From an uncultured Candidatus Saccharibacteria bacterium (GTDB lineage: Bacteria > Patescibacteriota > Minisyncoccia > Phycocordibacterales > UBA9973), in NCBI GenBank assembly GCA_964646765.1, contig CAZYIA010000001.1:341621-405620 (forward strand): DNA of 64,000 nucleotides, read 5' to 3'. Positions within the stretch are counted from its first letter, which is position 1. The number at the start of each line of letters is the position of its first letter. Below the pieces are notes generated by a model. It saw nothing but the letters and a program-made list of their open reading frames with translations, did not search any database and had not been told where the DNA came from. Made by a program: the position numbers and the translations under genes. Shown in pieces: positions 13,142-53,620 of this stretch.

Positions 13142-13226
13142 CTAAAAAACCAGCGGGATAAAAAACCTTCAAAAATTTCATACCGGAATTGTACTAAATG
13201 GAGAGTGAAATGACTATGGAAAAGTG

Positions 13227-13345
13227 ACGGGAAGAATTTTCCCTCGCCTCTTGCTGTGCCGTCGCACAGCTCGGGCTGGGCACCGCCTCGCGGTTTGCTT
13301 TGCTAAGCAAACAACGCTCCGGCGTTCGAATCCTTACGGAAGCAA
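13227..13345 (+). other. Copy 1 of a duplicated structured element of about 100 nt. It is a candidate ncRNA of unknown class.
   Basis: It is about 85% identical to 26871..26990. Its hairpins are CTGTGCCGTCGCACAG and TTTGCTTTGCTAAGCAAA. A TTCGAATCC T-loop-like motif follows. Confidence 0.4.
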
Positions 13346-13364
13346 TTCAAATTGCTTCCTCCCA

Positions 13365-13396
13365 GCGCACAGAAGAAAAAAGCTGTCCTAAAAGAC
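13365..13396. terminator. Bidirectional intrinsic terminator hairpin
   Basis: Sequence AAAAAAGCTGTC-CTAAAA-GACAGCTCTTTTT. U-tracts are present on both strands. Confidence 0.5.
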
Positions 13397-13520
13397 AGCT
13401 CTTTTTCAACGTGTGCAGCGTAGTAAAGGATATTAGAACTGAACTTATGAAAGTTAGCCCTAGTCTTTATGTGCCAAATTTGAGTGTTTGGTCGGAGTAG
13501 TAAGCAATAATTTACTTTGT

Positions 13521-14495: not shown

Positions 14496-14542
14496 GAAAC
14501 CTGAGTGAAATTATGGAAAATAGTTTTGTGCGCCGGGAAGGA

Positions 14543-14557
14543 ATTTCTCGGCTTACA
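14543..14557. repeat. 15-bp direct repeat of the tRNA-Tyr 3' region. It is a putative attL/attR core.
   Basis: GTGCGCCGGGAAGGA is identical at 14543..14557 and 18876..18890. Confidence 0.5.
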
Positions 14558-14663
14558 GCCGCAGTACACCTTTTCGGCGAATTCAAAACAAGTTTCTCAT
14601 TTGCAGCGAAAAGCTCTTAGAATCCTTCCCGCGACTGAAGCAGTTCAGTCGCTCCGGCCACGT

Positions 14664-14692: not shown

Positions 14693-14890
14693 GTGTCTCT
14701 ATTGTACCAAGTTAGAACCTATTTCCAAAATAAATAAAGCGGACGAATTTTTGCGAAACAATTTTTCTGGGGAAAAGGATTCGCAAAAATTCGGCTGATT
14801 TTTTTTGAAATTCGGACTCGCCCGCGCGGAGGAGGGGTCTGGGGAGGAATCCGCGCGGGCTTCGGCTTTTTGTTTTTTGGCGGGGCGGGC
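14693..14890. repeat. IR1-L, a 198-bp perfect inverted repeat whose partner is 16809..17006
   Basis: Comparing the two arms by eye, they are exact reverse complements. Each arm contains a GC-rich hairpin, GCCCGCGCGGA...TCCGCGCGGGC, followed by a T-tract. Confidence 0.9.
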
Positions 14891-14928
14891 AAATAGAAAA
14901 AACAGCGAAAAAATGATAAAATGAATTT

Positions 14929-15423
14929 ATGGAAAATCCAGAGTTAAATCACGAAAAACCTCCTATTGCTGTTGAGAAAATATCTCACATTTTTTCGTCT
15001 AATGCCGAAAAGCGTATTTGTGTTGTTGGTGCAAGCTGTGTAGGAAAATCTACTTTACTTCGGTTTTTGCCAGAAGCTGTTGATATGGACGATTTGCTTT
15101 TCGGCAACAAACAAAAAGGAATTGAGCCATTACTTACACAACAAGAAAGAGATTATGTCTGTGGGCCTTGGACACCAGAAGTCGGTCAATTTATGACCAA
15201 GAAAGCCCACGAACTTATAAAAATTGAAGCAGGTCATCCAGTTTTCGGCACAATCGTTTTTCCATCAGATTTAGTAATTGAAGTGTCTGTTCCCGACGAT
15301 ATTTTACGAGAAAGGATTAGGCGAAGAAACTCAAATGAGCAAGATGTTTTTAACATGAAAGCACAAATTGAATCTGAAATTGAAAAGTCGGGTATAGAGA
15401 AAATTGTTATTGAAAATATATGA
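14929..15423 (+). CDS. Small P-loop NTPase (kinase-like)
   Basis: Walker A motif VVGASCVGKST. The protein is 164 aa. Confidence 0.45.
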   Translation: MENPELNHEKPPIAVEKISHIFSSNAEKRICVVGASCVGKSTLLRFLPEAVDMDDLLFGNKQKGIEPLLTQQERDYVCGPWTPEVGQFMTKKAHELIKIEAGHPVFGTIVFPSDLVIEVSVPDDILRERIRRRNSNEQDVFNMKAQIESEIEKSGIEKIVIENI

Positions 15424-16043
15424 AAATAATTCTCGCCTCAGATTTAAGTTTTCTTTTGAAATACGGTTATGATTTAACTGGCATTCCAAAGTCCGAAATG
15501 AAAATCGGATATATTACAACCGCTTCAAAAGGATCAAGAGATACGGCATTTCTTGAAAAAGTTAAAAATGCGATGAAAGAAAACGGTATTGATTTTGAGG
15601 AAATTGATATTGAGGGTAAAAGCAAAGATGAAATACTTAACTTTTTCAAGAACAAAAACATTATTCATGTTGAGGGCGGAAATACTTTTTATTTGCTAAA
15701 AGCAATTAGAGAAAGTGGTTTTGCAGAGGCACTGAAAGAATTATTGAACGAGGGGAAAATTTATATCGGCACAAGTGCGGGAGCGTATGTTATGTGTCCA
15801 ACTATTGAAGTAGCAAACTGGAATGAAACTGGTAGAGATAGATTTGGTTTAACTGATTTTTCAGCGTTAAATTATGTACCTTTTGTTTTGAAAGTCCATT
15901 ACAAAGACGAAATGGAAAATACAGTGAAAGAAAAAATGAGAACTCTAAAATATCCGCTTAGAATTTTGCGAGACGGACAAGGGATTTTGGTCGAAAATGG
16001 TGAATATGAATTTGTCGGAGATAATCCCGAAGTAATTTTTTAA
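15420..16043 (+). CDS. Peptidase family S51 (dipeptidase E / cyanophycinase-like)
   Basis: The family-typical HVEGGNTFYLL motif and IGTSAGA (Ser nucleophile region) are present. Confidence 0.6.
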   Translation: MKIILASDLSFLLKYGYDLTGIPKSEMKIGYITTASKGSRDTAFLEKVKNAMKENGIDFEEIDIEGKSKDEILNFFKNKNIIHVEGGNTFYLLKAIRESGFAEALKELLNEGKIYIGTSAGAYVMCPTIEVANWNETGRDRFGLTDFSALNYVPFVLKVHYKDEMENTVKEKMRTLKYPLRILRDGQGILVENGEYEFVGDNPEVIF

Positions 16044-16047
16044 ATTT

Positions 16048-16788
16048 ATGATTAAGCCCATTATTCTTGCAAAAGGAAATTTTAAGCCAGAAGATTTAAT
16101 GACAACAGTCAGTGAATCTAATAGGAAAATTGATCCGAACAGAGAAAATCAATTAAACACTCTTTGGGCGGAAAAAGAGAAGAATGCCAAAGAAAAGGGC
16201 AAATTAATATATAACGGACTTTCTTATCGCTTAAATAGCTTAAAAGCTGAAAATGGTAAATTGTTTTTAGATTTTGGAATTTTTGATTTTAAAACTAGAG
16301 AATGTTTACCGGAAACTCCCGGATTTTACGAAACGACGGAAGAATATTGGCGTAAAGGATGCCATACTATTGCTACAGTTAAAACCTCTGACGATAGGTA
16401 TTTAATGGTGGAACTTTCTGGAAAATCAATGAATAAAAACACAATTGAATTTTTGGGTGGCATAATGGAAACAGAACCACCAATAAAATTAGGTAAGGAC
16501 ATTTTCCATTCGTTATATAAAGAATTGGAAGAGGAAGCGTTTATTACTGAATCAGATATTGCCGATTCTAATTTAAAAATGGTTTATATAAATTGGAATA
16601 CAAATGTTGGTTTTTATTTTGAGATTTTATTAAAACTTACTTCAGAACAATTACAAGAAAGATTTAATGAACAAACAAAAGAAATTGATATTAAATCTCT
16701 AAAAATTATGTCTCGCCCAGAATATATCAATGTGTTAGAGAATCATAACCCTAATAAACAATTTTTAGCGAAGCAAATAGAGATTTAA
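16048..16788 (+). CDS. Hypothetical protein with a weak Nudix-like KELEEEAF segment that is not convincing
   Basis: The ORF is 246 aa. It is the third gene of the IR1-flanked cassette. Confidence 0.35.
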   Translation: MIKPIILAKGNFKPEDLMTTVSESNRKIDPNRENQLNTLWAEKEKNAKEKGKLIYNGLSYRLNSLKAENGKLFLDFGIFDFKTRECLPETPGFYETTEEYWRKGCHTIATVKTSDDRYLMVELSGKSMNKNTIEFLGGIMETEPPIKLGKDIFHSLYKELEEEAFITESDIADSNLKMVYINWNTNVGFYFEILLKLTSEQLQERFNEQTKEIDIKSLKIMSRPEYINVLENHNPNKQFLAKQIEI

Positions 16789-16808
16789 TAACCCCTTTTA
16801 GATTTTAA

Positions 16809-17006
16809 GCCCGCCCCGCCAAAAAACAAAAAGCCGAAGCCCGCGCGGATTCCTCCCCAGACCCCTCCTCCGCGCGGGCGAGTCCGAATTTCAAAAAAAA
16901 TCAGCCGAATTTTTGCGAATCCTTTTCCCCAGAAAAATTGTTTCGCAAAAATTCGTCCGCTTTATTTATTTTGGAAATAGGTTCTAACTTGGTACAATAG
17001 AGACAC
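16809..17006. repeat. IR1-R, a 198-bp perfect inverted repeat
   Basis: It is the reverse complement of 14693..14890. Confidence 0.9.
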
Positions 17007-17148
17007 CAGAATTTTACTAATCGGTTTTTTGGAAGCCCCAATGCGGGACGCGCGAAGCGCGTCCCAAGGATTCCCGCCGATTTTTCCTAATGAATTTGGA
17101 GCGTCGCCTTCGGCGACGCGCACTGTTTTCTCGCCAAGAAGCAGGTTC
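17004..17148. repeat. IR2-L, a 145-bp perfect inverted repeat whose partner is 18733..18877
   Basis: It is the exact reverse complement of IR2-R. It contains hairpins GGGACGCGC-GAA-GCGCGTCCC and GCGTCGCC-TTCG-GCGACGC. It overlaps IR1-R by 3 bp. Confidence 0.9.
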
Positions 17149-17344
17149 AAAATCAGAAGCAATTTTGACTCAGAGTATTTGCTTTGATACAAAAAGAATT
17201 TTTGCCTTTTTTCTAAAAGTAGTATAATGACCTTGCGCAAACTTACGGAAGGTCTATTTTAATGGCCGTCTTGGACTTATCTAGATCTTCTAGGTTTGCG
17301 CACCAGGGCGGCCATTTAAGTTTTATCAATTAATTTTTATTTCT

Positions 17345-18919
17345 ATGCAAAAATTCTTTTTGTATGCTCGCAAGTCAACCGATGTTGAAGATAAACAAGT
17401 GTTATCAATAGACGCTCAACTCACCGAATTGCGGGAGTTCGCCAAGAGAGAAAATTTAGTCATCGCCCGTGAGTTTATAGAAAAACAATCTGCTAAAATT
17501 CCAGGTCGTCCCGTTTTTAATGAAATGATGAAGTGTATTGAAAAGGGCGATGCAGATTGTATTCTCTCTTGGCATCCAGATCGTCTTGCCCGCAATTCAG
17601 TTGATGGTGGCAAGATTATTTACTTTTTAGACATCGGATTGCTTGCGAGCCTCAAATTCCCACAGTTTTGGTTTGAAAGTACGCCACAGGGCAAATTTAC
17701 GCTTTCTATGGCATTTGTACAAAGCAAATACTATGTAGATTCTCTTTCCGATAACACGAAAAGAGGACTTCGCCAAAAAGTACGCATGGGAATATTCCCA
17801 AGCCAAGCGCCAATCGGTTATATAAACGACAGTCGCACCAAAACGATTGTGGTAGAAAAGAAGAAAGCAAAAATCTTGCGCTTGGCTTTTGAACGATATG
17901 TGAAAGGAAATCAAAGGTTAGAGGATATCGCAACTTTTTTGGCAAAGAACGGAATATCTACGCGTTCCGGAAAGAGAATCTCAAAAACGAGAGTGGCTTT
18001 CATTTTGTCCAATCTGTTCTATGTCGGACTTTTTAACTATGCCGGTGAACTTCACGAGGGTAAGCACGAGCCAATCATTTCAAAGAAACTTTTTGATGAA
18101 GCACAGGAAATGCTGAAACTTCGTGGACAACCAGAGCGTAAACCACAAAATGAACCCCAATCTTTCTGCGGACTCATTTCCTGTGCCTCATGCGGGATGA
18201 TGATAACTGGCGAATACAAGGTGAAGAAACAGAAAAATGGCAATGTCCACAATTACACCTACTACCACTGCACGAAAAAACGCAAAGATATGAAATGTCC
18301 CGAACCTTGTATTCGGGAAGAAGAATTAGATCGCCAGTTATCATCTCTAATCAAAAAAGTTTCTTTGCCCAAAGACTGGGCGGAGGAATTGTTAAAAATG
18401 GCAGAAAACGAACATGGAAATTCCGCCCAGTCTTTGACTGCTTGTGTGAAAGAGAACGAAACAAAAATATCGGTCATTTCACAAAAGTTGGAGCGACTTC
18501 TTAATGGATATTTAGAGCAAGATATTGAAAAAGAAGTTTATCGCATAGAAAAAGCAAAACTTGTGTTGCAAAAGAAGTCGCTTGAAGAAGAAATGACCTC
18601 TCTTTCACACAAGCAGAATGATTGGCTCGAACCCTTTACCGAATGGGTGAAAGCCGCTCAATCATTGGACAAAATTGCTTCTGATGATGACCTTTTTGCA
18701 AAAAAGGTCAAAGCCAAAGAAATCTTTGGCTCGAACCTGCTTCTTGGCGAGAAAACAGTGCGCGTCGCCGAAGGCGACGCTCCAAATTCATTAGGAAAAA
18801 TCGGCGGGAATCCTTGGGACGCGCTTCGCGCGTCCCGCATTGGGGCTTCCAAAAAACCGATTAGTAAAATTCTGGTGCGCCGGGAAGGATTCGAACCTTC
18901 GCAGCCCGAAGGCGCTTGA
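17345..18919 (+). CDS. Large serine recombinase (resolvase/invertase catalytic domain, recombinase domain and zinc ribbon)
   Basis: Catalytic region YARKSTDVEDKQ..SIDAQ and W.PDRLARN. There is a Cys-rich zinc ribbon, CGLISCASCG...YYHCTKKRKDMKCPEPC. The 3' tail is encoded by IR2-R and runs antisense into tRNA-Tyr. Confidence 0.85.
   Translation: MQKFFLYARKSTDVEDKQVLSIDAQLTELREFAKRENLVIAREFIEKQSAKIPGRPVFNEMMKCIEKGDADCILSWHPDRLARNSVDGGKIIYFLDIGLLASLKFPQFWFESTPQGKFTLSMAFVQSKYYVDSLSDNTKRGLRQKVRMGIFPSQAPIGYINDSRTKTIVVEKKKAKILRLAFERYVKGNQRLEDIATFLAKNGISTRSGKRISKTRVAFILSNLFYVGLFNYAGELHEGKHEPIISKKLFDEAQEMLKLRGQPERKPQNEPQSFCGLISCASCGMMITGEYKVKKQKNGNVHNYTYYHCTKKRKDMKCPEPCIREEELDRQLSSLIKKVSLPKDWAEELLKMAENEHGNSAQSLTACVKENETKISVISQKLERLLNGYLEQDIEKEVYRIEKAKLVLQKKSLEEEMTSLSHKQNDWLEPFTEWVKAAQSLDKIASDDDLFAKKVKAKEIFGSNLLLGEKTVRVAEGDAPNSLGKIGGNPWDALRASRIGASKKPISKILVRREGFEPSQPEGA
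18733..18877. repeat. IR2-R, a 145-bp perfect inverted repeat
   Basis: It is the reverse complement of 17004..17148. It ends within the CACCA 3' end of tRNA-Tyr. Confidence 0.9.
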
Positions 18920-18958
18920 TTTACAGTCAAGTGCGATTGACCACTCCGCCACCGACGC
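18873..18958 (-). tRNA. tRNA-Tyr(GTA), type II, with CCA encoded
   Basis: Acceptor stem GCGTCGG/CCGGCGC. Anticodon stem CTTGA/TCAAG with loop CTGTAAA. There is a long variable arm. T-arm GAAGG-TTCGAAT-CCTTC. The 3' end is ACCA. Confidence 0.8.
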
Positions 18959-26541: not shown

Positions 26542-26613
26542 GGCCTAGTCGCCAAGTGGTAAGGCAAGGGTCTGCAAAACCCTTATACGGCGGTTCGATT
26601 CCGCCCTAGGCCT
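26542..26613 (+). tRNA. tRNA-Cys(GCA)
   Basis: Acceptor stem GGCCTAG/CTAGGCC. Anticodon stem AGGGT/ACCCT with loop CTGCAAA. T-arm GGCGG-TTCGATT-CCGCC. Confidence 0.8.
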
Positions 26614-26620
26614 CAACAAC

Positions 26621-26655
26621 AAAAAACAACTAGAGAATACCTCTAGTTGTTTTTT
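26621..26655. terminator. Bidirectional intrinsic terminator between convergent tRNA genes
   Basis: AAAAAACAACTAGAG-AATAC-CTCTAGTTGTTTTTT. Confidence 0.65.
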
Positions 26656-26659
26656 GTTG

Positions 26660-26741
26660 TGCCGGGGAGAGGACTTGAACCTCCATGCCTTGCGGCGCTT
26701 GCTCCTAAGGCAAGTGCGTCTGCCAATTTCGCCACCCCGGC
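26660..26741 (-). tRNA. tRNA-Leu(TAG), type II
   Basis: Acceptor stem GCCGGGG/CCCCGGC. Anticodon stem CTTGC/GCAAG with loop CTTAGGA. There is a long variable arm. T-arm GGAGG-TTCAAGT-CCTCT. Confidence 0.8.
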
Positions 26742-26761
26742 AAATTCTATTTAGTTTTGTG

Positions 26762-26842
26762 CCCAGGGCGGGAGTCGAACCCGCACGGCATTGCTGCCTG
26801 GGGATTTTAAGTCCCCTATGTCTACCAATTCCATCACCCGGG
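26762..26842 (-). tRNA. tRNA-Leu(TAA), type II
   Basis: Acceptor stem GCCCGGG/CCTGGGC. Anticodon stem GGGGA/TCCCC with loop CTTAAAA. T-arm GCGGG-TTCGACT-CCCGC. Confidence 0.8.
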
Positions 26843-26870
26843 CAAGAAGTTTTATTCTAGCAAAAAAATA

Positions 26871-27035
26871 AAATGCGAGGGATCTCCCTCGCCTCTCACT
26901 GTGCCGTCGCACAGTTCGGGCTGGACACCGCCTCACGATTTGCTCTGCTGAGCAAATATCGCTCCGGCGTTCGATCCCTACTCGCACGCCACGCAGGTGG
27001 CGTGCTTGGGCAGGACAAAGAGCGCTTCGCGATTT
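26871..27035 (+). other. Copy 2 of the duplicated structured element. It extends into a hairpin-rich segment that abuts tRNA-Lys.
   Basis: It is about 85% identical to 13227..13345 over roughly 95 nt. There are compensatory changes in two hairpins. The motif GTTCGATCCCTAC is identical to the T-loop and stem of the adjacent tRNA-Lys but in inverted orientation. Read on the minus strand, it ends in GCGAGGGA-GATC-TCCCTCGC followed by a T-tract. Confidence 0.4.
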
Positions 27036-27108
27036 GTCCGCCCAGTAGGGATCGAACCTACGACCGTACGCTTAAGAGGCGTCTGCTCTACCAACTGAGC
27101 TATGGGCG
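27036..27108 (-). tRNA. tRNA-Lys(CTT)
   Basis: D-arm GCTC-AGTTGGTA-GAGC. Anticodon loop CTCTTAA. T-arm GTAGG-TTCGATC-CCTAC. Acceptor stem CCGCCCA/TGGGCGG, with C1:G72 and a G27.A43 mismatch. Confidence 0.7.
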
Positions 27109-27170
27109 GATGTATCTAAATACAGGAGAGACTCTAACAAAAATACCCTTATTTTTCAATACTTATTTAC

Positions 27171-27199
27171 TTGACTTTAGTCAAATTTTAGGGTATAAT
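27171..27199 (+). promoter_or_regulatory. Consensus sigma-70-type promoter
   Basis: TTGACT, then a 17-nt spacer, then TATAAT. It lies about 120 bp upstream of the ORF at 27321. Confidence 0.5.
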
Positions 27200-27320
27200 T
27201 TTATAGATTTCCTTGAAAAAGGAGTATTTCCTCCGCTCCCTTCAAAAACTCAGTTTTTGGGAAGAGTGGAGGCAATACAACTCTATAAACTTAAATTACT
27301 AACCAAAACAAATAATTGTT

Positions 27321-27755
27321 ATGTTCAAAAAAGGCTTAATCGCAATTTGCACCCTTGTTGTAATAATTGCACTTTTCATCTTTTGTCGTGTACTTTTCGG
27401 CCATTCAGACTTGCTTAAAAAAGCAAAGAATAATGGCGGCTGTTACACAACCACTATTAGTGGATCACCCACCCGATTGGAGTGGAAAAACACCGATTGG
27501 AACTTCCAAGTTCCTCCTGGAGTTACTTGTATCGTTGATTATCGGGAACCATATCCGGTGCTTGAAATCTGCGGTATCTGGATAGTGCGCAGTTCTATAA
27601 CTGGAACTGCAAGTTTTAATTCCAATCGTTGGATTACTCCCTTACCTTGTGGTTTAGGAAAAGACTACCCGGTTTACTGTAAATTCCGGACAAAAAATGG
27701 ACAGAAGGTGCCGCTCACTTGCACGATTCTAAAAGAGTGGGAAGAAGAAAACTAA
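27321..27755 (+). CDS. Small Cys-rich secreted/membrane hypothetical protein
   Basis: N-terminal TM helix and eight Cys residues. Confidence 0.4.
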   Translation: MFKKGLIAICTLVVIIALFIFCRVLFGHSDLLKKAKNNGGCYTTTISGSPTRLEWKNTDWNFQVPPGVTCIVDYREPYPVLEICGIWIVRSSITGTASFNSNRWITPLPCGLGKDYPVYCKFRTKNGQKVPLTCTILKEWEEEN

Positions 27756-53108: not shown

Positions 53109-53263
53109 TTTACCAAAAATTCTTTAATTAAGAAAGAAAATTTGCTATACTGAAAAAACAATTTAATAGACGACCTAACCCGATAGGAATTTCCTAGCGA
53201 TATGGTCATAAACACCGCAAAAGTATAAAAACCCCTTAGTCTAGGGTCACTTTTGCGGTCACA

Positions 53264-53620
53264 TTGGGAAACTGGTGTGGGTGGGTAATACCATCGTCCT
53301 GGCTAAGGGATTTTTGTATGGAAAATTCTATGTCAGGCTATAAATCCGCAAAAGTTTTTATGACAAAATATGATATTGGTTTAATGTTGATTATCTTTGC
53401 AATAGGTTTTGATTTAGTTTCTTTAAGAAAAGAGGTTCGTAGATTAAGTATCAAACTTATGAATAAATTAGATAAGCCAACAGAATTAGAAAAGCAAATT
53501 GAAGAGAGAAAAAAGAAACCTTATTTAACAAAAGAGGAATTAGATAAGGTTATGACTCCTGAGGAAAAAGAAATAAGAAAGAAATTATTCGGCAGTGAAT
53601 ATCCAAAAGAAATTGATTAA
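53264..53620 (+). CDS. Small membrane or coiled-coil hypothetical protein
   Basis: One TM helix and a K/E-rich C-terminus. Confidence 0.3.
   Translation: MGNWCGWVIPSSWLRDFCMENSMSGYKSAKVFMTKYDIGLMLIIFAIGFDLVSLRKEVRRLSIKLMNKLDKPTELEKQIEERKKKPYLTKEELDKVMTPEEKEIRKKLFGSEYPKEID

Follow-up and report, generated by a model that had tools for sequence, protein, structure and literature searches.

We analysed a stretch of 64,000 nucleotides (nt) from an uncultured Candidatus Saccharibacteria bacterium (contig CAZYIA010000001.1, positions 341,621 to 405,620; hereafter the window), in which a folded element of about 105 nt occurs twice. Copy 2 stands in a minus-strand tRNA operon behind tRNA-Lys(CTT). 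Copy 1 is matched through its flanks to tRNA-Tyr(GTA), from which it is separated by a 4.2-kb island, a second element with a smaller core (type B) and one gene. Both copies belong to an element family that is real and whose members follow tRNA genes throughout the Patescibacteria, or candidate phyla radiation (CPR). A short IF2, RbfA and its homologues put the window in this group, close to the Paceibacteria/Nomurabacteria. The family is apparently undescribed: no description of it was found in Rfam 15 or in the searchable full-text literature, subscription literature lying outside that search. At the gathering threshold Rfam 15 matches nothing on either copy, in agreement with a preliminary description, made by eye from the letters, that could not assign the element to transfer-messenger RNA (tmRNA), signal recognition particle (SRP) RNA, 6S RNA or RNase P RNA. 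With the two regions scanned alone at E-values up to 10, only chance matches on the flanking terminator appeared, and typical family members in other loci likewise gave no match. 5S rRNA, SRP RNA, tmRNA, tRNA-Sec and permuted or split tRNAs were dropped as identities on the lack of a model match, the wrong order of motifs and the complete tRNA upstream.

A covariance model built in this analysis scores copy 1 (13232–13335) at 111.9 bits and copy 2 (26877–26980) at 114.2 bits, both on the minus strand, and a scan with it finds no third copy of this type A element in the window. The similarity of the two copies, which the preliminary description had pointed out, extends over about 95 nt and includes a core 26-mer present exactly twice in the window, where 100 shuffles of the window give an expectation of zero. 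The cores are identical at 78 of 88 positions (89%). The ten differences comprise three double compensatory changes (six positions), two changes from C-G to U-G and two unpaired positions, and the closing helix adds two further double changes; every difference at a paired position preserves pairing. The hairpins singled out earlier are present as described, namely CTGTGCCGTCGCACAG in identical form in both copies, a second hairpin with a compensatory change (TTTGCTT..AAGCAAA versus TTTGCTC..GAGCAAA) and a ‘5′ hairpin’ that differs while keeping its structure (GGGAAGAATTTTCCC versus GCGAGGGATCTCCCTCGC). Compared with shuffled sequences, both copies fold more stably, the minus strand more so (z = −3.0 and −5.0). 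The selection on structure that had been proposed is supported by these structure-preserving changes and by covariation across the family.

The element had initially been read on the plus strand. The strand that bears the structure is most likely the minus strand, that of the adjacent tRNAs, because three observations favour it. First, the tRNA-sense strand gives the better fold in 81 of 86 members, the mean advantage being 6.8 kcal/mol. Second, non-canonical oppositions on this strand are G·A in 157 cases versus C·U in about 11. Third, the one-sided changes between the window copies give copy 2 two U-G pairs that would be A·C mismatches on the plus strand, as would a G-U pair in the closing helix of copy 1. 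In this orientation the ‘5′ hairpin’ is in fact the 3′ end of the element, where it overlaps the closing helix and the terminator of copy 2. Counted over the family, G-U pairs (56) and A·C oppositions (48) are nearly equal, and the comparison was discarded as a strand test because it is uninformative overall; since G-U is no commoner than A·C, the fold would be usable as RNA or as single-stranded DNA.

Two different patterns were used to find homologues. The first, with 23 specified bases, was run on contigs of one representative genome per species and matched 114 stretches, of which about 95 come from CPR and comprise the full element. The second, taken from the 3′ half of the element, was run on metagenomes, where the family is at least as large as the set of matches listed by that pattern. 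Both samples, being seeded by conserved patterns, are biased towards well-kept copies, and together they hold more than 200 homologues with a covarying core that is not tRNA. The hosts belong to many CPR classes, among them Saccharibacteria, Uhrbacteria, Paceibacterota, Magasanikbacteria, Kaiserbacteria, Moranbacteria, Vogelbacteria, Taylorbacteria, Gribaldobacteria and Kerfeldbacteria; a few metagenome-assembled genomes with other labels also bear the element, and GC-rich non-CPR matches, which lack the flanking blocks, were rejected as chance. There are several core types with one architecture, and strict patterns undercount the family because a divergent core variant with the same architecture exists. 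This variant, seen at L023:6165-6255 and in L033 after tRNA-Arg(TCG), has different junction sequences and the same apical loops as the rest of the family (CCAGTAGG and TTCGACGGAA). The surroundings of family members were examined as 8-kb loci, within which copies were also counted. Many loci hold two or three copies and one, L112, up to five, with an element after each of four tRNAs and a fifth near the start of the locus; tandem arrays occur in L041, L099, L106, L080, L179 and L197, and low-scoring degenerate copies exist.

The consensus of 85 distinct cores is a GC-rich three-way junction whose parts follow in the order closing helix P1, GAAC junction, P2, GUG and P3. P2 consists of CGCC, a GGA-GA loop, a variable stem and the apical loop CCAGCAGG, and P3 of CCC-A-GCC-C, a GA-GA loop, a variable stem and the apical loop GCGACGGC, closed by GGC-G-N-GGG. 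A 9-bp hairpin, H, stands 0–3 nt upstream of P1; it has at least 6 bp in 139 of 149 members and the loop CTGC in 42. Covariation across homologous loci is strong. In the first alignment 90.0% of cells are paired, versus 74.6% in shuffles and 36–45% (about 38%) with slid partners, double changes number 464 versus 131, and a long-range pair switches from C-G (61) to G-C (19). The independent metagenomic alignment, fitted to the same covariance model, has 91.1% of cells paired and double changes at 33 of 36 pairs. The family thus presents a conserved, aptamer-like fold with a variable closing helix. Tertiary motifs considered for it were rejected: a kissing contact of hairpin H, through its CTGC loop, with the loop of P2 is inconsistent across members, and the internal loops are tandem G·A pairs with at most one bulged base, without the 3-nt bulge of a kink-turn.

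These results leave a negligible probability that the two copies are chance similarities or decayed tRNA pseudogene fragments lacking any conserved element. That idea could draw on flanks that are indeed derived from tRNA and on the universality of GTTCGA in tRNAs, but a 26-mer with an expected count of zero and covariation in both alignments already refute it, and the tRNA model gives no match on the core shared by the more than 200 homologues.

A co-oriented tRNA ends 22–80 nt upstream of 72 of 91 elements in the genome set and of 86 of 105 in the metagenome set (~80%). ARAGORN assigns these tRNAs to 17 specificities in the genome set; in the metagenome set it gives 18, together with two ‘tRNA-Stop’ calls, and His and Asn from the two sets bring the union to 19; tmRNA also precedes elements. 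The exceptions without an upstream tRNA are mostly explained by contig ends, by a group I intron in the tRNA or by an insert between tRNA and element. Group I introns interrupt the tRNA before the element at L090:3372-3643 and L098:2179-2462, which is why ARAGORN misses both tRNAs; such introns in CPR tRNAs sit in the anticodon loop and are unrelated to the element (PMC13011429). In about half of the cases (56 of 113), the spacer between tRNA and element is a terminator hairpin.

Read in the direction of the tRNA, a family member comprises the spacer, an inverted copy of the acceptor 3′ strand, hairpin H, an inverted copy of the T-stem 3′ strand and T-loop that ends in GAAC, the core, and a direct copy of the tRNA end. 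The sequence of P1 lies outside the conserved core and varies with the neighbouring tRNA. The reverse complement of tRNA positions 53–65 supplies its 5′ strand and GAAC, the complement of the acceptor lies further upstream, beyond H, and the 3′ strand of P1 begins the direct copy, which runs from position 57/58 to the end of the tRNA (17–20 nt). Over 71 tRNA/element pairs, the inverted copy matches cognate tRNAs at 12.1 of 14 positions versus 10.0 for non-cognate tRNAs (standard deviation (sd) 0.13), and the direct copy at 14.4 of 20 versus 8.9 (sd 0.21). Because cognate beats non-cognate, the match to the neighbouring tRNA is far above the level set by the universal T-loop, and even a tRNA-Phe with the unusual T-loop GTCCAATTCCC is mirrored downstream, as TGGGAATTGGAC.

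The direct copy has a fixed start in the T-loop, at 57/58, and ends 1–5 nt past position 72 in 55 of 80 well-kept tRNA/element pairs; where the repeat is longer, it belongs to a tandem unit or takes in the terminator, with tails of up to 55 nt. Its preservation is bimodal, with at least 18 of 20 matches in 32 of the 71 pairs and decay in the rest. In the 80 well-kept pairs the presence of CCA is concordant between gene and copy in 69: neither has it in 49, both have it in 20, and in 8 pairs only the copy does. Because CCA status is concordant and CCA mostly absent, the direct copy derives from DNA rather than from mature tRNA, and the same counts rule out an origin by reverse transcription of mature tRNA along the lines of a retroviral primer-binding site.

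In the window the arrangement is clearest in copy 2 (Table 1), where the segment AGTAGGGATCGAAC is the exact reverse complement, on the minus strand, of GTTCGATCCCTACT in tRNA-Lys; its AGGGATC forms the 5′ strand of P1 and its GAAC the junction, and hairpin H interrupts the inverted copy of the tRNA-Lys 3′ end. In copy 1, GTAAGGATTCGAAC matches GTTCGAATCCTTCC of tRNA-Tyr over 12 consecutive bases. The matches to tRNA-Lys and tRNA-Tyr reported earlier are therefore real, but the T-loop mimicry proposed for them is not, since the motif on the minus strand is the complement of T-loop and T-stem. The direct repeat, which in the family forms an att-like scar with the tRNA reconstituted, is decayed in both copies: beyond 7 nt it is lost from copy 2, whose acceptor part is gone, and about 13 of 18 positions are kept in copy 1. 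Arms P2 and P3 of copy 2 each contain a tandem G·A internal loop. That copy 2 lies in a minus-strand tRNA operon and ends in a terminator, as first noted, was confirmed (26892–26875 plus a T-run), and two tRNA-Leu genes follow this terminator in the minus-strand reading. The terminator and the fold of copy 2 are mutually exclusive because the base of P3 and the P1 3′ strand share their strands with it. Copy 1 shows such an overlap weakly, with a terminator-like hairpin GGGAA..TTCCC in its P1 3′-strand region (13224–13239); in most family members a terminator after the direct copy is separate from the element helices.

Table 1. Coordinates of the two type A copies, the type B element, their tRNAs and the island, as positions in the window.
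Feature	Coordinates	Strand	Description
tRNA-Tyr(GTA)	18873..18958	-	Matched to copy 1 and to the type B element; 5.5 kb upstream of copy 1
Island	14693..18872		Large serine recombinase 17345-18919 (Pfam) and three cargo genes
Type B element (smaller core)	14528..14652	-	Hairpin 14652-14631; inverted T-arm copy 14630-14617; direct copy of tRNA-Tyr 3′ end 14547-14528
Bidirectional terminator hairpin	13375..13405		Upstream of copy 1 (minus sense), at the place of the family ‘X’ hairpin
Anti-acceptor and hairpin H, copy 1	13338..13371	-	TGTGCGCTGGGAGG, partial inverted acceptor copy; H is GGAAGCAAT TTGA ATTGCTTCC at 13359-13338
Inverted T-arm copy, copy 1	13324..13337	-	GTAAGGATTCGAAC, tRNA-Tyr positions 53-66; P1 5′ strand and GAAC junction
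Conserved core, copy 1	13240..13323	-	Arms P2 and P3
P1 3′ strand and decayed direct copy, copy 1	13224..13239	-	AAATTCTTCCCGTCAC versus tRNA-Tyr 3′ end GAATCCTTCCCGGCGCAC
tRNA-Lys(CTT)	27036..27109	-	ARAGORN and Rfam; upstream of copy 2, same strand; T-arm GTTCGATCCCTACT
Spacer after tRNA-Lys	27005..27035	-	Inverted, partial acceptor 3′ strand in its 3′ part: GTCCTGCCCAAG, where TCCGCCCAG is expected
Hairpin H, copy 2	26985..27004	-	CACGCCAC CTGC GTGGCGTG
Inverted T-arm copy, copy 2	26969..26982	-	AGTAGGGATCGAAC, tRNA-Lys positions 53-66, 14/14 complementary
Conserved core, copy 2	26885..26968	-	Arm P2 GCCGGAGC...GCGAGGCGGTG; arm P3 CCAGCCCGA...GAGAGGCGAGGGAG
P1 3′ strand, copy 2	26878..26884	-	GATCCCT, direct copy of tRNA-Lys positions 57-63 (7 nt)
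Terminator-like hairpin, copy 2	26862..26892	-	GCGAGGG AGAT CCCTCGC and T-run

The type B element between tRNA-Tyr and copy 1 has a hairpin with the loop CTGC; its inverted copy of the T-arm reads GGGAAGGATTCTAA and its direct copy GAAATTCCTTCCCGGCGCAC. Relatives of it follow tRNA-Lys in L002 and L003, tRNA-Arg in L108 and tRNA-Tyr in L131. Together with the island and one gene, it separates tRNA-Tyr from copy 1, which explains why the T-loop match of copy 1 had been noted at a distant tRNA. The insertion point of the island is exactly after the CCA end of tRNA-Tyr, and the frame of its serine recombinase extends into the antisense of that tRNA. Its nested inverted repeats are 100% perfect (14693–14890/16809–17006, 198 nt; 17004–17148/18733–18877, 145 nt) and meet at CAC; from their arrangement they look like attL, an inverted intact attP and attR, or like an invertible system, and an assembly effect of an invertible segment may contribute. 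Up to the CCA end of tRNA-Tyr, contig L131, which comes from a different sample, agrees with the window at 99.6% identity; beyond that point the two diverge completely. L131 is free of the island, and its tRNA-Tyr runs straight into a type B element (1500–1710, to be compared with window position 18870). Contigs L128 and L132 are 100% identical and break 25 nt past the end of tRNA-Tyr, inside the terminal repeat of the island. The site after tRNA-Tyr is a strain-level hot spot.

A direct repeat reaching from the T-loop to the tRNA 3′ end is the classical mark of tRNA-targeting integrases. Integrative elements that target tRNA and tmRNA genes, with their attL and attR, share with the family this repeat, the intact tRNA, the use of tmRNA and the occurrence of tandem arrays; they differ from it in that the element is an insert of 150–180 nt without integrase, serves at least 19 tRNA species, and has an extra inverted copy and a covarying three-way-junction core. 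The likeness raises the question of whether the family consists of scars left by integrase-borne islands or prophages, the repeats being attL and attR and the core a surviving island end. The integrase-like repeat signature, the serine-recombinase island lying between tRNA-Tyr and its elements, and inserts of at least 0.8 kb at the same place in L017 and L021 would fit such an origin. We nevertheless consider it highly doubtful. The usual insert is gene-free, no integrase is enriched nearby in open reading frame (ORF) clustering of about 90 loci, and one core is found at 19 or more tRNA specificities, unlike any single integrase family; serine recombinases are not known to make such repeats, and the core covaries on one strand. 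The window island itself, judging from the strain comparison with L131, is a later and separate insertion at the tRNA CCA end. The suspicion voiced at the outset, that the element might be a decayed att site or tRNA fragment found at every integrase target, is half borne out: the flanks resemble insertion footprints derived from tRNA, but the conserved, covarying core is no tRNA fragment, and no integrase accompanies it.

The island arm at 14693–14900 is 79–90% identical to L021:4588-4986, which precedes a ‘solo’ element of another CPR genome, and the shared part includes an outward-facing, promoter-like TGGTACAAT box. Related islands appear to insert between tRNAs and elements in other lineages.

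Our preferred reading, held tentatively and at somewhat less than an even chance, is that the family is a miniature, non-autonomous, duplicative tRNA-homing element whose active form is the folded tRNA-sense strand. New copies would arise at the T-loop of tRNA genes, and insertion would leave a direct repeat of the last 17–20 nt of the tRNA, so that the tRNA stays intact; the repeat would then decay except for the part required by the closing helix. The folded single strand could be a read-through RNA or single-stranded DNA, and its stem would reproduce the target duplex, as in integron attC sites and the CTX-phage attP(+), while a conserved trans-acting factor, cellular or element-encoded, would use the conserved core as its handle. 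Several lines of evidence support this. First, the repeats have fixed boundaries and are either intact or decayed, tandem arrays and degenerate copies occur, and strains differ after tRNA-Tyr. Second, copies at different tRNAs of the same genome share near-identical cores with different closing helices; the within-genome core similarity is 0.93 in L051 and L125 and 0.88 in the window, versus a median of 0.77, and a nearest-neighbour test for spread within genomes is only weakly positive. Third, about half of the members sit behind a terminator-like hairpin. A fold at the DNA level fits as well as one in RNA, given that G-U pairs are no commoner than A·C.

The likeness to attC and attP(+) lies in the one folded strand in which function would reside, the imperfect inverted repeats about 90–100 nt apart, the stem imitating a duplex partner, the covarying structure and the purine mismatches tolerated on one strand only. 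It is a likeness of fold: no recombinase (IntI or XerCD) adjoins the element in the roughly 90 loci, and attC has little sequence conservation whereas the element has about 45 near-invariant positions and a stem that varies with the tRNA. Other miniature repeats (REP/BIME, BOX, Correia, ERIC and the IS200/IS605-derived PATEs) resemble the family in being small, non-coding, multi-copy and intergenic, often placed after terminators, and stably folded. They have constant ends, genus-level distributions and scattered sites, whereas the element is superphylum-wide, bound to tRNA 3′ ends and provided with ends copied from its target; constant terminal inverted repeats, as in miniature inverted-repeat transposable elements (MITEs) and REPs, are absent from the family, where P1 changes with the neighbouring tRNA.

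A number of observations weigh against mobility. To our knowledge, no known mechanism yields both an inverted and a direct copy of a target. ORF clustering of the roughly 90 loci shows no enriched recombinase, transposase or reverse transcriptase, and no copy was found in 2.9 million viral contigs or in phage and plasmid records, on which ground a phage or plasmid origin was rejected. Core similarity within the genome does not exceed that to the best other genome in the window and L051. Among the syntenic relatives compared, aligned via RbfA, no clean pair of filled and empty sites was found at otherwise identical type A loci; L002–L007 have another core type at the same place, and L008–L013 have none and a rearranged tRNA cluster there. 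Even between very deep CPR lineages, about 45 positions of the core hardly vary; variants of the core track the taxonomy of their hosts, and compensatory changes occur at some loci that look orthologous. Such deep invariance with taxonomy-following variants is the pattern expected of a host-functional RNA, although the conservation is partly an ascertainment effect because the searches used conserved patterns. The weak points of the homing-element reading are thus the lack of a linked enzyme, the origin of the inverted copy and a depth of conservation that fits a host function at least as well.

This depth of conservation also speaks for the main rival, a host-serving, cis-acting 3′ trailer RNA, which we regard as possible though unlikely. 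Its anti-tRNA segment would toggle between the tRNA and the downstream copy, with the junction, perhaps binding a factor or ligand, deciding, and it would control tRNA folding, 3′ maturation or read-through. Members lie on the strand of the tRNA at a constant short distance from it, the nucleotides of junction and internal loops are extremely conserved across the superphylum, the purine-rich tandem G·A loops on the tRNA-sense strand are a typical RNA motif, and the closing helix is retained where the remaining repeat has decayed. The sharing of the P1 and P3 3′ strands of copy 2 with the terminator before two tRNA-Leu genes resembles a terminator/antiterminator layout. A gene for a CCA-adding-enzyme-like nucleotidyltransferase, ~85 nt after an element that follows tRNA-Gly(GCC) in L033, L023, L061, L124 and about six further loci, points the same way, though this linkage in about ten related loci may be only shared synteny of related genomes. 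A trailer function is harder to reconcile with the half of all members that sit behind a terminator-like hairpin, with variable downstream content that in many members includes a second terminator, with the restriction of the element to some tRNAs of a genome, which differ between relatives (L008 lacks it at tRNA-Lys), with tandem duplicates and degenerate copies, and with the lack of G-U enrichment over A·C. Riboswitch aptamers have a similar conservation pattern; unlike them, the element follows tRNAs, has variable downstream genes and does not occupy a leader position. In particular, copy 1 is not the leader of the 1588-amino-acid (aa) gene beside it: the element precedes the promoter-like site of this next gene, and no particular gene regularly follows the members of the family.

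The antisense segment could alternatively belong to an independent, trans-acting small RNA with 14–24 nt antisense to the cognate tRNA or its gene and a protein-binding scaffold, which would direct modification, cleavage or sequestration, or serve an RNA-guided enzyme as scaffold and 3′ guide. The antisense follows the tRNA also at the ‘invariant’ GAAC, for which the element itself offers no partner; the scaffold is followed by 17–20 nt identical to a genomic target preceded by a constant GTTC; and ‘solo’ elements stand behind promoter-like TGGTACAAT boxes. Still, we find such a role improbable, as no candidate effector gene is linked in the ORF clustering, base pairs inside the element already occupy the antisense segment, the promoter-like boxes are part of the arm of the inserted island, and the acceptor part of both the inverted and the direct copy decays in older members. 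The omega RNAs of TnpB and IscB offer a parallel, with a scaffold directly before ~17–20 nt equal to the flank and a target preceded by a constant short motif (GTTC for the element); they differ in that neither TnpB nor IscB is nearby, the ‘guide’ is partly paired in the element and the scaffold is unrelated to Rfam omega RNAs.

It is very improbable that the element is a small ribozyme exchanging or repairing the tRNA 3′ end, with a guide across position 56/57, a catalytic core and a replacement 3′ exon (tRNA 57–76). The order of parts is that of an engineered trans-splicing group I ribozyme, the copy boundary is fixed in the T-loop, a conserved purine stands directly before the copy, and tandem units look rolling-circle-like; yet no group I or self-cleaving ribozyme model matches at E-values up to 10, the core has only ~95 nt, the upstream tRNA is already complete, and the acceptor part of the ‘exon’ is decayed in half of the members, both window copies included. 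The group I guide logic (P1/P10) and trans-splicing ribozymes do share with the element a 5′ guide across one site, a structured core and a downstream sequence. They differ from it in that the element has no group I core of the P3–P9 kind (no RF00028 match), is half the minimal size and leaves its tRNA uninterrupted. The same search tool detected genuine group I introns in neighbouring tRNAs. Also rather improbable in our estimate is a new kind of nucleic-acid-guided, protein-light mobile or repair module for tRNAs, in which a conserved recombinogenic or catalytic core of ~95 nt is programmed by the antisense T-arm copy. Such a module would carry a spare copy of the last 17–20 nt of the tRNA and would either home via the folded strand or exchange the tRNA 3′ end.

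With tRNA-like domains (the tRNA-like domain of tmRNA, viral tRNA-like structures, mascRNA and bacterial Y RNA), intact members have in common ends that can form a coaxial helix resembling acceptor and T-stem and ending in NCCA; the element differs from these domains in that its 5′ strand is a Watson–Crick complement, a T-loop is missing, and many members, the two window copies among them, no longer have the acceptor part. Overall, the family is akin to a tRNA-associated repeat or an orphan structured motif, with a minority chance of something categorically new.

Patescibacteria account for a large part of bacterial diversity, and their tiny genomes hold little non-coding DNA. Even so, many of them spend 150–200 nt per tRNA gene on the element, sometimes after most tRNAs of a region. 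If the homing-element reading is true, the family is a parasite that homes to tRNA genes and, by copying the end of its target, leaves it intact, apparently without a linked enzyme; this would point to a new insertion mechanism and would account for the assembly breaks and rearranged tRNA clusters of CPR genomes. If instead the element acts on the tRNA as an RNA, organisms whose repertoire of RNases and modifications is reduced would have a new layer of tRNA maturation or control. In either case, hundreds of loci can be annotated in one go with the covariance model, and an element that an island has displaced, such as copy 1, can be traced to its tRNA through the matching flanks.

Some further observations concern the surroundings of the copies. 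The order and orientation of the Cys/Leu/Leu/Lys tRNA cluster (26542–27109) differ in L008:3345-3765, L099 and L039, with elements at the breakpoints, and recombination between elements may reshuffle tRNA clusters. A plus-strand ORF of 181 aa (26873–27418) spans copy 2 and continues antisense to tRNA-Lys; in related loci, spurious ORFs of this kind across the element form the largest ‘protein cluster’, and gene callers may annotate them as hypothetical proteins. Elsewhere in the window, a full-length LOOT RNA (RF03000, 74.5 bits) lies on the plus strand at 53172–53295, within a 10-kb stretch (46–56 kb) of 32–34% G+C, compared with ~42% elsewhere; this stretch may be another foreign segment.

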